A stretch of 64,000 bases of DNA, taken from Blastocatellia bacterium. Its GTDB lineage: Bacteria; Acidobacteriota; Blastocatellia; UBA7656. Under the pieces are notes generated by a model, which was not told the DNA's origin, searched no databases, and saw only the letters and a program-made list of their open reading frames with translations. Positions 2,419 through 63,668 of the stretch are shown here, piece by piece (the first letter of the stretch is position 1; each line of letters begins with the position of its first letter). The position numbers and the translations under genes are program-made. The DNA lies in the NCBI GenBank assembly GCA_963765495.1, contig CAVXWP010000001.1, positions 591,898 to 655,897 on the forward strand, given 5' to 3'.

Positions 2419-2592
2419 ATCTATTATTCCTCGCTGAATTTCAAAACTATAAACAAACTTCGAACGATACGTGACCGCTATGGAGGCTGTCAACGCGGTG
2501 GCCAGTGATCACTGAGCAGTGGTCGGTGGCCGGTAATAAGGAGTTGCGGCATCAGATCGGCCCCGGAGAGACGTAGATGCGCCGACCGCTGC

Positions 2593-3273
2593 TCAACCTA
2601 TGAATTTATAACCGAGCCCGTGAATTGTGAGAATGAATTGAGGATGGCGGGGATTTGGTTCTAGTTTCTGGCGAAGCCATGCCACGTGTACATCAACCGT
2701 TCGGGTCGAGGGCATGGCATTGTAGCCCCACACTTCGTTCAGCAATTCGTCACGCGAAAGCGTGCTGCCTCTATGATCTATAAAGTAGCGAAGCAATTGA
2801 AACTCGCGGGCGGATAAATCGACTGCCGCACCATTGCAAGTGACTTCGGCGCGGCGAAAATCCACCCGCACAGGCCCGAACTGATAGGCAGTTTGAGGAT
2901 AAACGGTTGCCACGGGTGCGCGACGCAACAGCGCTTCTATTCGCGCAAGCAATTCAATGGTCTCGAAGGGCTTGGTTAAATAATCATCAGCACCCAGTTT
3001 CAAACCCACCACTTTATCTACGACCTGCCCGCGAGCCGTGAGCATGATGAGGGGCGTCTCTATGCCGCGCTGTCGCAAGTCTCTGCATACATCGAACCCG
3101 TTTTTACGCGGAAGCATAACGTCGAGGATGATCAAATCAAACGACTCGGCAGACGCTCTCTCAAACCCGGTCTCACCGTCCCCGGCCGTCTCGACCTTAT
3201 AGCCTTCGCTCGTCAGCCGGTCGCTCAACGTAAGAACCAGTCCCGGCTCATCTTCTATCAATAAAATTCGCAT
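2593..3273 (-). CDS. OmpR/PhoB-family response regulator (receiver plus winged helix)
   Basis: MRILLIEDEPGLV...DVMLP...K receiver and C-terminal wHTH (LTIHGLGYKF). The track N-terminal extension to 3327 (MPVSESRITHHDSRISFN) is encoded by the palindromic repeat and is rejected. Confidence 0.85.
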   Translation of the reverse strand: MRILLIEDEPGLVLTLSDRLTSEGYKVETAGDGETGFERASAESFDLIILDVMLPRKNGFDVCRDLRQRGIETPLIMLTARGQVVDKVVGLKLGADDYLTKPFETIELLARIEALLRRAPVATVYPQTAYQFGPVRVDFRRAEVTCNGAAVDLSAREFQLLRYFIDHRGSTLSRDELLNEVWGYNAMPSTRTVDVHVAWLRQKLEPNPRHPQFILTIHGLGYKFIG

Positions 3274-3284
3274 ATTGAAAGAGA

Positions 3285-3393
3285 TGCGTGAATCGTGATG
3301 CGTGATGCGTGATTCCGAGACAGGCAATTATCTGTAACAAGTCTTCTGCCTCAAAGTCATGTATCACGATTCACGCATCACGATTCACGCGTC
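3285..3393. repeat. heptamer-tandem palindromic element (GCGTGAT type) between the HK and RR cistrons
   Basis: Left arm gatgcgtgaatcgtgatgcgtgatgcgtgattc, about 45 nt loop, right arm gtatcacgattcacgcatcacgattcacgcgtc (imperfect inverse). Confidence 0.75.
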
Positions 3394-5355
3394 GCGCATC
3401 ATTATCAGTGCTTCATCGCTGGCCTCGGTCGCCTGAGCTACAGCGGGCAGGCGCAAAGTGAAGGCGCTTCCACGTCCGGGCGCGCTTTCTACATCCACGC
3501 TTCCGCCGTGGGCATCAATTATGTGTTTTACCAGGCTCAACCCCAGGCCGTTCCCATGAATCTGGGCCGAGGCGGCCTCGCGGCCCCGATAAAACGGTTC
3601 AAAGATGTGAGGCAAATCCGAAGCCGTTATTCCCATTCCACGGTCTTCGATTGTGATTTCGACTTCCAGACCGCGTCTGCCCTGAACCGATTTCGCTCCA
3701 ATCCTTATCAAACGGCTTTCGCCCGCGTATTTCATGGCGTTGTTGAGCAGGTTTTGAATCGCTCGCAGAAGCGCCGCCCTGTCGGCTAAAACCGGAGGCA
3801 GATTCATCTCGATCTCTTTTTCCACATCGAAACCGCCTTCGCTTATCTGCATACGGCAATCGGCGAGCGCCGCGTCGATCAGGTCATTTGCGTCTGTCGG
3901 ATACAGATCATAAGTCTTCTGGCCCGATTGCGCGCCCGCAAAATCGAGCACCTGCTCGACCATCTTCGCAAGCCTCTGCCCTTCGCCCTTTATCAACGCG
4001 CCGTATCGTTTGATCTGCGCCCGGTCGTCGATCACCCCGTCGGCCAGATTTTCGCCCGCCGAACAGATAACGGCGAGCGGGGTCCGCAACTCGTGCGATA
4101 CGCCCGCGACAAATTCAATCTGCTGTCTTGCCAACCGCTGTGCGCGCCGCGTCGAGATTATTATCATCGCTACGCTCACCGCCAGCAGCAAAAGTATGCC
4201 GAAGCTCACGATCAAATTTCGATGACGCACGCCCGCGACCGCCAGATCGAGCGAGCCCGCGCGATGCTTTATCACAAGCTGCCAGACGCCGTCTTTATTC
4301 CCTGTAAGAGAGCCTTTCGCGGACGTCTCTCCCGGCGATTCACTGCGAATGCTGAACGTCATAATCTGCGACCTGTGCTCGCCCGCCGCCGCCGTTTCTC
4401 CGCGCATTCCCATCTCCGGCAACAGATCGCTGAACTCTTCGAACCTCAATCCGAAAAGCCCCGCCGTCTGGTCGCCCGCGACGGCTTCTTCATCAGAGAT
4501 CTTCGCATCGGATCTGTATATGATCTTCTTCGGGTCTTCGCGTTCCACAATCGCCACGTTGTAATCGACTGTATCGCCGCTTGCGAAGTACCTCCGGGCA
4601 AGCAGGGGAAGAAACTCCTGTTTTATGTAATCGAGATCGAGCGTGATAATGTTGTGGCCGGTGAGCGGGGCTATCTCGGGCAACCCCGCGCTTTCGCGAC
4701 TTTCGACGCGAGCGGTAAAGGTCTTTCTCTCCTTTTCGATGAAGCGATATTTCGGGAGCACGACGAAAGCCTTATCGGTCTTCTCTACAAGACGGTCGCC
4801 TGTAATCATTCGAAGTCCGAGTATGGGTGTGACGATGGCGGGCACATCTTCGGCTATAGTATTCAGGAGGTTTCGCGCAAGCATTGCCGGTTCGGGAAGT
4901 TCAGCCCGCTTCATATCGGCAAACGAGTCGCGCAGGGTCAGGAGTTCCGGCGGCCACTCGCGCGGCTTGAGCATAGCCTGCGCCCTGTCGAATTCGAGCA
5001 ATCGAGGCCCGCTCTTGTCGTCCTCTTCAACTACGAATACGCCTTTGACAAGCCTGGGATAAGGCGCGGTTTGAAACCACCTGTCATAACGTTTCGAATA
5101 ATCATCCCATCGGTTATCGCGCAAGTCGGCCGCATCCATCTGCAAACTCAAATATGCGCGGGCAAGTTCGCGGTCAAAATCGCGGCTGAATTGCGTAGCC
5201 CCGGCGCTGAGACTCTCCTGCATCCGCTCGCGCTCTGCCCGGCTGACCTGCCCGAGCCATCGGTATTGCAGGGTCGCAAACAGCGCGAGCAACAATACGA
5301 GCGAGGCGGCAAGCACAAGGGTCAGAGGCGGGCGTTTTTTCAACAGCTTCTTCAC
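3385..5355 (-). CDS. sensor histidine kinase with large N-terminal extracytoplasmic domain
   Basis: H-box AGVSHELRTPLAVI, N/G-box ...LLNNAMKYA...DRGMGI...GLGLSLV; N-terminal TM segment; GTG start. Confidence 0.85.
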   Translation of the reverse strand: MKKLLKKRPPLTLVLAASLVLLLALFATLQYRWLGQVSRAERERMQESLSAGATQFSRDFDRELARAYLSLQMDAADLRDNRWDDYSKRYDRWFQTAPYPRLVKGVFVVEEDDKSGPRLLEFDRAQAMLKPREWPPELLTLRDSFADMKRAELPEPAMLARNLLNTIAEDVPAIVTPILGLRMITGDRLVEKTDKAFVVLPKYRFIEKERKTFTARVESRESAGLPEIAPLTGHNIITLDLDYIKQEFLPLLARRYFASGDTVDYNVAIVEREDPKKIIYRSDAKISDEEAVAGDQTAGLFGLRFEEFSDLLPEMGMRGETAAAGEHRSQIMTFSIRSESPGETSAKGSLTGNKDGVWQLVIKHRAGSLDLAVAGVRHRNLIVSFGILLLLAVSVAMIIISTRRAQRLARQQIEFVAGVSHELRTPLAVICSAGENLADGVIDDRAQIKRYGALIKGEGQRLAKMVEQVLDFAGAQSGQKTYDLYPTDANDLIDAALADCRMQISEGGFDVEKEIEMNLPPVLADRAALLRAIQNLLNNAMKYAGESRLIRIGAKSVQGRRGLEVEITIEDRGMGITASDLPHIFEPFYRGREAASAQIHGNGLGLSLVKHIIDAHGGSVDVESAPGRGSAFTLRLPAVAQATEASDEALIMMRDA

Positions 5356-5405
5356 AACGGCGATTATAGCATCACTATTACGCCGCCGGATGGGGCGGCA
5401 AAAAA

Positions 5406-5424
5406 TTTTACATCCTTAACAATT
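5406..5424 (-). promoter_or_regulatory. conserved upstream motif TTGTTAAGGATGTAAAA (minus strand), followed by extended -10 TGCTATAAT at 5363-5371
   Basis: A near-identical motif and TGCTATAAT recur upstream of the phospholipid operon (9576-9594 / 9538-9546). Confidence 0.4.
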
Positions 5425-5522
5425 ACGTGAAGCGTGAAGCGTGATTCATGACTTCAGGTGGCAGGATTAAACCAACTTGCAAGCCTCGTAAATCACGAAT
5501 CACGCTTCACGCTTCACGCTTT
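5425..5522. repeat. heptamer-tandem palindromic element (GTGAAGC variant)
   Basis: acgtgaagcgtgaagcgtgattc ... aatcacgaatcacgcttcacgcttcacgct, lying in the divergent region between HK and terC. Confidence 0.75.
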
Positions 5523-5574
5523 TGATGGTTGCTGATTCTTTTGGCACACGACTTGATGACACTTAATCATCGTA

Positions 5575-6495
5575 GTGGCAGATTACTCAATAAATCACAT
5601 TCCGATATGGATATGGGCGATATTTGGCGTGCTGATTCTGATCCTGCTCGTGATTGATCTTGTCGCGCATCGGGACGATCATGCCACGTCGCGCAAGAGT
5701 GCCATCATCTGGAGCATAATCTGGATCGCGTCGGGGCTTGCCTTCAATGTCTTCGTATATAATATGTTCGGCGGTCGAGCCGGGCAGCAATATCTGGCCG
5801 CTTATCTGATCGAAAAGAGCCTGAGCCTCGATAATCTTTTCGTATTCCTGATAGTCTTTCGGGGGCTCAACACGCCCGAGAAGCATCAGCACAGGGTGTT
5901 GTTCTGGGGCATCTTTGGCGCGCTCGTTTTTCGCGGCCTCTTCATATTCGCGGGCGCTGTGGCCATCGAGCGATGGCAGTGGGTCTCTTACATCTTTGGC
6001 GCGCTTCTTTTATACGGCGCTTACAGCGCGCTTCGTAAAGACCCCGCTCGCGAGCGAAAAAGCGAGGTGGTCGAGTGGCTCTCAAACCATCTGCCCGTCA
6101 CCGAAAAAGTTCAAGATACAAAATTCTTCTCAATTGAAAACGGGAAGCATGTGGCCACGCCGCTCTTTGTCGCTCTGGTTGCGATTGAATTGACCGACAT
6201 CGCCTTCGCCATAGATTCGGTCCCGGCGGCCTTCTCGATGAGCCACAGCCGATTCATACTCTATAGCTCAAACGTCTTTGCGATACTCGGACTGCGCGCT
6301 CTTTACATCACGTTGGCGCATTCTTTAGCCAGACTCAAATACCTGCGTTACGGGCTGGCCGGAGTGCTCGCGTTTGCGGGCTTCAAGCTGATCGCCGATC
6401 AGTGGATAGAGATCCACACGCTCGTTTCAGTAGGAGTTATCGTGCTGATGATAGGTTTATCGGTCTGGGCGAGCCTCGGCGAGAAAAAGATGTAG
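5575..6495 (+). CDS. TerC/Alx family integral membrane protein
   Basis: Multi-TM protein with the LSLDNLFVF motif typical of TerC; GTG start. Confidence 0.8.
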   Translation: MADYSINHIPIWIWAIFGVLILILLVIDLVAHRDDHATSRKSAIIWSIIWIASGLAFNVFVYNMFGGRAGQQYLAAYLIEKSLSLDNLFVFLIVFRGLNTPEKHQHRVLFWGIFGALVFRGLFIFAGAVAIERWQWVSYIFGALLLYGAYSALRKDPARERKSEVVEWLSNHLPVTEKVQDTKFFSIENGKHVATPLFVALVAIELTDIAFAIDSVPAAFSMSHSRFILYSSNVFAILGLRALYITLAHSLARLKYLRYGLAGVLAFAGFKLIADQWIEIHTLVSVGVIVLMIGLSVWASLGEKKM

Positions 6496-12115: not shown

Positions 12116-12210
12116 CACGTGATGCGTGATGCGTGATGCGTGACCGGAAGCACCCGGCCCATCGAAGCCCGGTTGTAACTCTCACACATCACGTATCACG
12201 CATCACGTCC
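12115..12210. repeat. heptamer-tandem palindromic element (GCGTGAT x3)
   Basis: acacgtgatgcgtgatgcgtgatgcgtgac ... cacacatcacgtatcacgcatcacgtcc. It overlaps the false 5' extension of the downstream ORF. Confidence 0.75.
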
Positions 12211-31641: not shown

Positions 31642-31958
31642 CCGTGATGCGTGAAGAGTGATGCGTGATTTAGCAGGCTTGCATGTAATCTTTATCAGGA
31701 GGTCTGCTAAATTATTCCGCAAGAGATTGGTACAAATGAAATTGAATGAAAGGCAAATTGAAATAGGCCGCGGATTTACGCGGATGCGGCGGATTAGCGC
31801 GGATTAGATCAAATTGGGACTGATCCGCGTAAATCCGTCGCATCCGCGTCATCCGTGGTCTATTTCTACTCACCCTATGTTGGAGTTTCGCTTGTACCAA
31901 TCTTGTGCATTTCGATTTAGAAAGTCACGAATCAAGCATCACTCTTCACGTGAGCGCA
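31642..31958. repeat. about 310-bp nested imperfect palindrome; outer arms are GATGCGTGAAGAGTGATGCGTGATTTAGCAGG type
   Basis: Outer arms ccgtgatgcgtgaagagtgatgcgtgatttagcagg / aatcaagcatcactcttcacgtgagcgcac. A middle tier is caagagattggtacaaatgaaattga / gagtttcgcttgtaccaatcttgtg. The inner tier is ggatttacgcggatgcggcggattagcgcggat / atccgcgtaaatccgtcgcatccgcg. It lies between convergent genes. Confidence 0.75.
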
Positions 31959-63544: not shown

Positions 63545-63668
63545 TCGTGATGCGGTCAATGATGCGTGATGCGTGATGCGTGATTTAGCAGACTATCAAG
63601 CTGTCTTAAACCTGCGGTCTGCCGTATAGTCACAAATCACTCTTCACGCATCATTGACCGCGTCACTG
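63545..63668. repeat. heptamer-tandem palindromic element (GCGTGAT x4; shares GATGCGTGATTTAGCAG and GTGAAGAGTGAT blocks with the 31642 element)
   Basis: aatcgtgatgcggtcaatgatgcgtgatgcgtgatgcgtgatttagcagac ... gtcacaaatcactcttcacgcatcattgaccgcgtcac. Confidence 0.75.

Follow-up and report, generated by a model that had tools for sequence, protein, structure and literature searches.

A heptamer-armed hairpin repeat between a histidine kinase and its response regulator in a Blastocatellia bacterium: probable gene-less copy of a dispersed intervening-sequence-like element

Introduction

A large hairpin separates the genes of a sensor histidine kinase and an OmpR-family response regulator in a Blastocatellia bacterium, and this element is the subject of the present report. 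The stretch analysed, referred to here as the window, comprises 64,000 nucleotides of contig CAVXWP010000001.1 in assembly GCA_963765495.1 (positions 591,898 to 655,897 of the forward strand). The hairpin is most likely a gene-less copy of a dispersed repeat that resembles the intervening sequences (IVSs) of 23S rRNA; it would have reached the junction by insertion, and its effects on the two genes would be by-products. Within its own genome it is an ordinary copy, one of about 250, of a poorly described class of elements. Copy number, patchy distribution and comparison across genera all point to mobility of the class. The outward-facing arms of these elements usually supply the stop codon of the neighbouring gene.

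Anatomy of the junction element

The element occupies 132 nt and is read here on the minus strand, the strand of both flanking genes. Two arms, each of six CGTGAnn-type heptamers, flank a 43-nt core. The principal features are as follows.

2593–3273, minus strand: OmpR-family response regulator, 226 residues, ATG at 3273–3271 (Pfam Response_reg at residues 3–113 and Trans_reg_C at 149–224; orthologue alignment)
3274–3327, minus strand: 18-codon N-terminal extension of the regulator, read as false (TTG 3327 ... SRITHHDSRISFN; from the open reading frame (ORF) list; missing in 12 of 12 orthologues; the 244-residue form is not in the public collection)
3276–3407, minus strand: whole heptamer-armed hairpin element, 132 nt (inverted repeats, fold, unit-by-unit reading)
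3276–3316, minus strand: regulator-proximal arm, units GGAATCA CGCATCA CGCATCA CGATTCA CGCATCT CTTTCA (direct reading; pattern matches at 3286–3313)
3317–3359, minus strand: 43-nt core with its own small hairpin, belonging to the main 42-nt core sub-family
3360–3401, minus strand: kinase-proximal arm, six in-register units TGATGCG CGACGCG TGAATCG TGATGCG TGAATCG TGATACA (direct reading; pattern matches at 3363–3390)
3407–3402, minus strand: degenerate 6-nt unit TGATAA outside the kinase-proximal arm (direct reading)
3385–3387, minus strand: stop codon TGA of the kinase, contributed by the third arm unit (ORF end)
3385–5355, minus strand: sensor histidine kinase, 656 residues (Pfam HisKA and HATPase_c; ORF list; orthologues at 41–54% identity)

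The palindrome is real and lies where the preliminary description had placed it, between the kinase and the regulator. An inverted-repeat search pairs 3283–3313 with 3363–3393 (31 nt, 90% complementary); a looser pair joins 3276–3315 to 3368–3407 (40 nt, 78% complementary). The RNA of 3265–3400 folds at -60.4 kcal/mol, against -35.8 ± 3.8 kcal/mol for shuffled sequences (z = -6.47), and none of 200 shuffles was as good. With up to two mismatches, the 14-mer GCGTGAATCGTGAT occurs 14 times in the window, where 0.68 occurrences are expected.

The 111 nt between the kinase stop and the regulator ATG are occupied by the hairpin, the end of which falls 2 nt short of ATG 3273. The element is not confined to this gap, as originally described: the left arm also covers the kinase stop and the last 5–7 codons of the kinase (..(L I) M M R D A *), so that the element reaches from about 3276 to 3407. 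The position of the kinase stop relative to the element (the 'd = -5' class) is shared by 32 other copies of the family. The regulator-proximal arm contains a stop codon in no frame, and for this reason a downstream ORF can be extended through it.

A permissive Rfam search of positions 2500–6000 gave no rRNA match and only a chance match to a plant miRNA at a neighbouring copy. Scanning of 2500–5700 for promoters and terminators revealed no terminator-like site, no U-tract and nothing above chance; the sequence that follows the right arm is CUCUUUCAAUAUG, and the U-tract of a Rho-independent terminator is thus not present. A weak sigma-70-like match, TTGAGG-16-GATAAT, is found in the core (3327–3354, minus strand) and points toward the regulator; two such matches were found against 2.1 expected.

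The start of the regulator

The longest ORF of the regulator begins at TTG 3327 and, as the preliminary description noted, adds 18 repeat-encoded residues, MPVSESRITHHDSRISFN, which derive from the right arm. No in-frame start codon lies between TTG 3327 and ATG 3273. That this longest ORF is the correct one, with a regulator carrying the repeat-encoded tail (peptide PVSESRITHHDSR), is scarcely credible; the frame is indeed open from 3327, and the remaining observations speak against it. Twelve orthologues from the same class, 73–82% identical, begin MSKRILL, MTKRILL, MSRRILL, MKR.. or MRILL. All of them start within two residues of the position of ATG 3273, and the extension is present in none. 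The receiver domain of the 226-residue form begins within a few residues of its N-terminus, position 1 of the PF00072 profile falling on residue 3. TTG 3327 is itself buried in the core of the hairpin. Peptides of the SRITHH type recur whenever a gene follows the open arm (in the window, ORF 12133; in the relative G042, ORF 1835.. of locus L056).

These observations support ATG 3273 as the true start (MRILLIEDE) and a spurious 18-residue extension, in agreement with the earlier suggestion. The accompanying warning of an annotation trap applies to longest-ORF tracks. The depositors were not caught by it: the public record holds the 226-residue regulator, and the 244-residue form is missing from the collection.

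The repeat family in the genome

The genome (7.3 Mb, 17 contigs; G000) contains 260 paired elements of the form [CGTGAnn]n-core-[nnTCACG]n, and none with the reverse arm order. Arms consist of 2–11 units. One 42-nt non-repetitive consensus is matched, in either orientation, by 171 of 257 cores; others form 26-nt and 35-nt sub-families. The core of the kinase/regulator element aligns to the consensus TTCAGGCAGGCAGCCTGTTAAAGACAACTTGCAAGCCTGGTA with a score of 32.5, compared with 21.7 for the 99th percentile of the null distribution. Four further copies lie in the window:

5426–5518: second copy, upstream of the kinase gene
12118–12207: third copy, inside which the longest ORF of the receptor gene downstream (12133..) begins
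31642–31958 (C1:623540–623847): copy whose core contains a nested period-9 CCGCGGATG palindrome
63546–63666: fifth copy

Period 7 stands out in this genome. Arrays of at least three units number 1387 at period 7, against 145 at period 6 and 58 at period 8, and 757 of the period-7 arrays stand in adjacent pairs with fixed arm order. CGTGAnn is the largest of at least seven heptamer families, the others being AGGGATG, CCGGGGG, AGGCAGT, GAGATTT, GAGTTTT and GGATTTT. Most of the families occur mainly as inverted pairs with fixed arm order.

Two side observations concern the architecture of these families. The 26-nt-core sub-family, CGTTGTTTTGAYTnnnTGCnATTTCC (for example C1:53218–53278, C7:56151–56211 and C9:345320–345373), carries on the opposite strand GGAAAT or GGAGAT just inside the arm, which resembles a ribosome-binding site. 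Inverted heptamer arrays are also found 200–330 nt apart with no called gene between them, at C14:59014–59391 (GTCAGTG), C7:112200–112548 (ATGCAGT) and C7:361214–361472 (GGGGCCA). These gene-free spaced arrays could be what remains of gene-bearing elements, or small ORFs may lie between them.

Placement against genes and stop codons

Genes were called with a crude, purpose-made caller (5439 genes, 85% coding), and the calls are approximate. None of 247 CGTGAnn elements lies inside a gene. By gap type, 164 are in tandem, 68 in convergent and 15 in divergent gaps, where the genome as a whole has 3871, 779 and 772; the elements are over-represented about twofold in convergent gaps and under-represented 2.3-fold in divergent ones. 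The median distance is 9 nt from the upstream stop and 32 nt to the start of the downstream longest ORF. Convergent gaps with an element hold a median of 17.5 nt of other DNA, against 93 nt of DNA in those without. The remaining heptamer families also adjoin gene ends, with median distances of 5–9 nt.

The stop codon of the neighbouring gene is usually part of the element. TGA stops fall in the heptamer register (d = 2 modulo 7) in 127 of 178 cases (chi-square p = 4e-99), and TAA stops fall in the same register in 25 of 58. Since 7 and 3 share no factor, TGA appears in all three frames within three CGTGAnn units, while the arm complementary to CGTGAnn has no stop in any frame. The frame properties of the two arms account both for the donated stops and for the false 5' extensions, the latter seen in 36 of 194 downstream genes of the genome, the regulator described above being a case of the same artefact. 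The stop-bearing arm thus rewrites the last residues of upstream proteins, with tails such as ..RDA*. The open arm is a systematic source of artefacts: ORF callers lengthen the downstream genes, and peptides of the SRITHH type are the sign of it. Across the family, the orientation of the asymmetric core relative to transcription is unbiased (57:44, p = 0.23), which counts against a locus-specific, strand-specific RNA device and against a core that works as a strand-specific RNA.

The kinase/regulator junction in relatives

No genome of the same genus was at hand, and the closest kinases are 41–54% identical over the whole protein, or at most 58% over the aligned segment. The orthologous junctions are organized as follows.

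G036, G040, G032 (family f5) and G033 (f6): cistrons overlap, by ATGA or more (26 nt in G040 and G032; ORF overlap of about 44 nt in G033)
G008: overlap of 4 nt
G015 and G004: plain gaps of 30 and 15 nt
G001: TCAGCCG...GCTGATA hairpin in a 113-nt gap
G014: GTCAGAn hairpin
G010: AGAATTC hairpin
G009: GGAGTCT hairpin
G017: period-9 palindrome in a 109-nt gap

Five of nine genera of the same family carry a heptamer hairpin at the junction, each with a different heptamer, and a sixth has a palindrome of another kind. In the one relative tested for it, G001, the junction hairpin belongs to that genome's own dominant family: G001 contains 272 TCAGCnn pairs, and eight other genomes contain none. The distribution of CGTGAnn pairs is patchy. 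They are present in 25 of 53 genomes of the bacterial family, and a single genus spans 0 to 170 of them; the control with the reversed pattern gave zero throughout. Over 81 sampled junctions, metagenome contigs included, 48 have a gap of less than 50 nt, and at least eight bear heptamer-armed hairpins with eight different heptamers. A tree of the concatenated kinase and regulator proteins has terminal branches of 0.4–1.1 substitutions per site and an unresolved backbone. With branches of this length and arms about 90% complementary, the elements must be far younger than the genera.

From these comparisons we conclude that the ancestral junction consisted of overlapping or abutting, translationally coupled cistrons, and that it appears to have been colonised repeatedly by whichever hairpin family was resident. 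Whether orthologous pairs lack the insertion was a question raised by the preliminary description, and the answer is divided: the cistrons of the more distant ones overlap, those of three genera of the family overlap or stand a short plain gap apart, and the other six of its nine genera carry palindromes. Preferential insertion of new elements into old ones, an idea that could account for the repeated occupation, finds no support within this genome: only 7 of 864 heptamer loci mix named families, against a rough random expectation of about 50.

A single ancient insertion common to G000 and G001 was weighed separately. Both regulators begin MRILL, and both kinase tails end DA* from GAYGCGTGA. 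In addition, G001 retains an outer motif typical of the CGTGAnn family, GTGAAGAGTGATGCGTGA, ahead of its TCAGCCG hairpin (L007 1935–1960, compared with window 3385–3407). Against a common insertion, the tree of the two proteins does not resolve these genomes as sisters, and G001 has no paired CGTGAnn elements. An older occupant of the junction may have left this outer motif behind. DA-stop tails encoded by GAYGCGTGA are found in the kinase of G000 (..MMRDA*), the kinase of G001 (..KSDA*) and an unrelated NtrC-like protein of G042 (..VIRDA*).

Other loci depart from the general arrangement. In two genera, represented by G011 (L005) and G020 (L008), the orthologous kinase is not followed by a response-regulator gene, as in an orphan kinase or a rearranged operon. 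In G009 (L012 871–2811) the GGAGTCT arm is stop-free in the kinase frame and the kinase ORF runs through the left arm. Lacking an in-frame stop there, this kinase ends at a TAA in the hairpin core, with a repeat-encoded C-terminal extension and no donated stop.

Gene-bearing forms and the PF05635 protein

Some inverted heptamer arrays enclose a gene. All four PF05635 genes ('23S rRNA intervening-sequence protein') of this genome lie inside inverted heptamer arrays, and these represent four different resident families, with the bracketing pairs GGGGCCn/CCCCCGG, GAGTTTT/AAAACTC, AGGGATG/CATCCCT and GGATTTT/AAAATCY. Each such element adjoins the upstream stop: for two of them the site falls inside the left array or on its border, and for the remaining two it lies just beyond. 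Of the 30 PF05635 loci in eight relatives, 22 stand between inverted period-7 arrays, with many different heptamers represented.

The CGTGAnn heptamer itself brackets such a gene in a relative. In G042 a PF05635 gene (E = 8.6e-15) stands between (CGTGATK)x7 and (nnTCACG)x14 or more (L056 1240–2011), and a similar case is found in G047. The G042 element sits on the TGA of the NtrC-like gene, the tail of which (..FGIVIRDA*) is encoded by the left arm. The PF05635 frame in G042 seems to need a +1 shift near the N-terminus (ATG 1386 against an open frame from 1390); this copy may be decaying or mis-assembled.

CGTGAnn arms that lie 150–2500 nt apart in the genome enclose ordinary genes or nested period-9 palindromes and no transposase, and no contig end stops in a CGTGAnn array. 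The period-9 repeat has a comparable association of its own. The single PF13366 (PDDEXK_3) gene, at C8:160916–161308, is bracketed by inverted period-9 CCGCGGATG arrays, and gene-less palindromes of this repeat are nested in three CGTGAnn cores (window 31642–31958, C8:194441–194768 and C2:383626–383987).

Likeness to known systems

The closest counterpart is the IVS of 23S rRNA. In Coxiella the terminal inverted repeats of this sequence form a stem of 28 bp, and its tandem heptameric repeats differ in number from strain to strain; it contains an S23p (PF05635) ORF, and RNase III cleaves within the stem (PMC4990558). ORF-bearing IVSs are known from Coxiella burnetii, Leptospira and Brucella. 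The junction element has the same kind of stem as that of Coxiella, an inverted repeat with tandem heptamers, here in six-unit arms that are 78–90% complementary. Gene-bearing forms hold the four-helix-bundle PF05635 gene in the loop, with the frequencies given above and one instance within CGTGAnn arms. Both elements are regarded as selfish and of unclear origin. The differences are also plain. The kinase/regulator copy has no ORF and only a 43-nt core, and it lies between protein-coding cistrons, not in helix 25 or 45 of 23S rRNA. The CGTGAnn family comprises some 250 gene-less copies that adjoin stop codons. Excision by RNase III is established for IVSs, whereas for the CGTGAnn element it is proposed by analogy.

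Heptameric simple sequence repeats are known as the short tandemly repeated repetitive sequences of cyanobacteria and the GGGAATC repeats of Xanthomonas. The latter include 70–75 loci with two convergent arrays and possible hairpins or cruciforms (Rehm et al. 2015, PMC4692102), and G-quadruplex roles have been proposed for them (PMC4692102). The intergenic excess of 7-nt tandem repeats and their convergent pairing are shared with the present family. The heptamers differ, and CGTGAnn cannot fill G-quadruplex roles. In this genome there are also a conserved non-repetitive core, an in-register stop, co-resident families and a cognate gene-bearing form.

Miniature inverted-repeat transposable elements provide a further comparison. 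The Correia/NEMIS elements of Neisseria are co-transcribed and cut by RNase III. Such elements are, like the hairpin described here, short, gene-less and terminally inverted, often co-transcribed with their neighbours, able to form RNA hairpins and prone to produce annotation artefacts. The arms of the CGTGAnn element are inverted as well, and in contrast they are internally repetitive and variable in unit number. In this genome we found no transposase-encoding insertion sequence with matching ends that could be the parent. In the literature, no account was found of heptamer hairpins in Acidobacteria, nor of a general link between PF05635 and heptamers beyond the incidental observation in Coxiella.

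Alternative explanations

Repetitive extragenic palindromic (REP) elements and REPINs, such as the BIMEs of Escherichia coli and the REPINs of Pseudomonas, are mobilised by a REP-associated tyrosine transposase (RAYT), and the hallmark of these systems is a RAYT gene flanked by its own REPs. The family described here resembles them in several respects: it is a high-copy, extragenic, hairpin-forming palindrome, enriched after genes and between convergent genes and depleted in divergent (promoter) gaps; gene-less copies far outnumber the gene; and there is one family for each cognate protein paralogue, a pattern shown here by PF05635. Two Y1_Tnp (PF01797) proteins are, moreover, encoded in the genome. 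Their genes (C9:13649 and C17:144209) have neither a CGTGAnn array nor above-chance CGTGA pentamers within 1.2 kb. The arms are 2–11 tandem heptamers rather than a single imperfect palindrome of 20–40 nt with a GTAG/CGTC head, and the protein that accompanies them is no HUH enzyme but a four-helix bundle. An element moved by a RAYT is accordingly very improbable. Growth in place has about the same low standing. By this account 7-nt slippage would have extended a pre-existing stem and intrastrand templated repair would have made the arms symmetrical, with no transposition. Unit number does vary from 2 to 11 among copies, the outer units are increasingly degenerate, and heptamer repeat number differs among Coxiella strains (PMC4990558). 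About 250 loci nevertheless have the same heptamer, and for 171 of them a common non-repetitive 42-nt core refutes local slippage as the origin of the family; the dominant heptamer also differs among genomes. Slippage probably adjusts arm length after arrival.

More serious is the possibility that selection has made a cis-regulatory RNA of the hairpin: the repeat family would have supplied it, and its usefulness here would have preserved it. As an attenuator, partial terminator or stabiliser of the 3' end, it would set the kinase:regulator ratio. The stem is very stable, the family resembles terminators in its enrichment at gene 3' ends and in convergent gaps, and a weak promoter-like match in the core faces the regulator. 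Large hairpins also occupy this junction more often than random occupancy would give: six of the family's nine genera have one, as do at least 8 of the 81 junctions sampled. The absence of a U-tract and of any terminator-like site in the scan argues against such a role, and the promoter match is within chance. The junction hairpins of different genera have no common sequence, and in G000 and G001 each comes from the genome's own abundant family, so occupancy follows the resident repeat load rather than a conserved signal. Overlapping or short plain junctions suffice for three genera of the family and for all four relatives outside it, and core orientation is unbiased. A regulatory device is, for these reasons, an unlikely explanation, and less likely than a by-product of the repeat.

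Several points weigh against insertion of an IVS-like repeat as the explanation. Within this genome no PF05635 gene lies inside CGTGAnn arms, and a tblastn search with the G042 protein found no close homologue; the largest family lacks its proposed partner here. PF05635 proteins are not known to act as nucleases or transposases. The flanks of the element consist of decaying, degenerate heptamers, in which no target-site duplication was recognised. Neither an empty site nor a fresh insertion was seen among relatives with kinases of at most 58% identity, and in metagenome contigs, too, kinase identity is at most 58% in the best segments. Finally, occupancy in six of nine genera is above random (roughly p = 0.003 at 16–18% gene-end occupancy, an excess noticed post hoc). 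Selection may explain this excess, as may permissiveness of the site, where the kinase tail is variable and the regulator start tolerant.

Proposed course of events and wider significance

Insertion of an IVS-like repeat remains the preferred explanation, and the following sequence of events is proposed. (i) A gene-less member of the class would have arrived at the junction by insertion. (ii) Since no terminator or promoter is evident, the element would be transcribed as part of the operon, together with both genes. (iii) Its presence would remove the stop/start coupling of kinase and regulator. (iv) The regulator would instead initiate de novo on the unstructured A/U-rich stretch 2 nt past the stem. 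(v) The near-perfect stem of about 30 bp is a probable substrate of RNase III, by analogy with the stems of IVSs; an rnc gene is present in the genome. (vi) Once cut, the transcript would yield a kinase message capped by the stem and, apart from it, a message for the regulator. Any regulatory effect would then be a by-product of a selfish or structural repeat and not a device that evolved for this operon.

A broader scheme is offered tentatively, and we consider it more doubtful than the account of the single element. Heptamer hairpins may be the non-autonomous majority of an undescribed mobile class, the autonomous members of which carry a PF05635 (Avd-like) gene. Each paralogue would recognise its own 7-nt unit, and the elements would home to stop codons, which would be rebuilt from the arms. 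The IVS of 23S rRNA would be a special case that landed in rRNA, and the kinase/regulator junction a favoured target, reached independently in five or more genera. If this is true, paralogue-specific 7-nt units would explain both the co-resident families, with their four gene/family pairs, and the dominant heptamers specific to each genus.

Three oddities are brought together in one genome: heptameric repeats, hairpins that abut stop codons, and the orphan PF05635 protein of rRNA intervening sequences. Their association, with one gene for each repeat family, is like the REPIN/RAYT pattern. Should the arms prove to be RNase III sites, several hundred operons would be cut, constituting a genome-wide layer of post-transcriptional uncoupling. 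The kinase/regulator pair, coupled translationally in its ancestral state, offers a clean test case.

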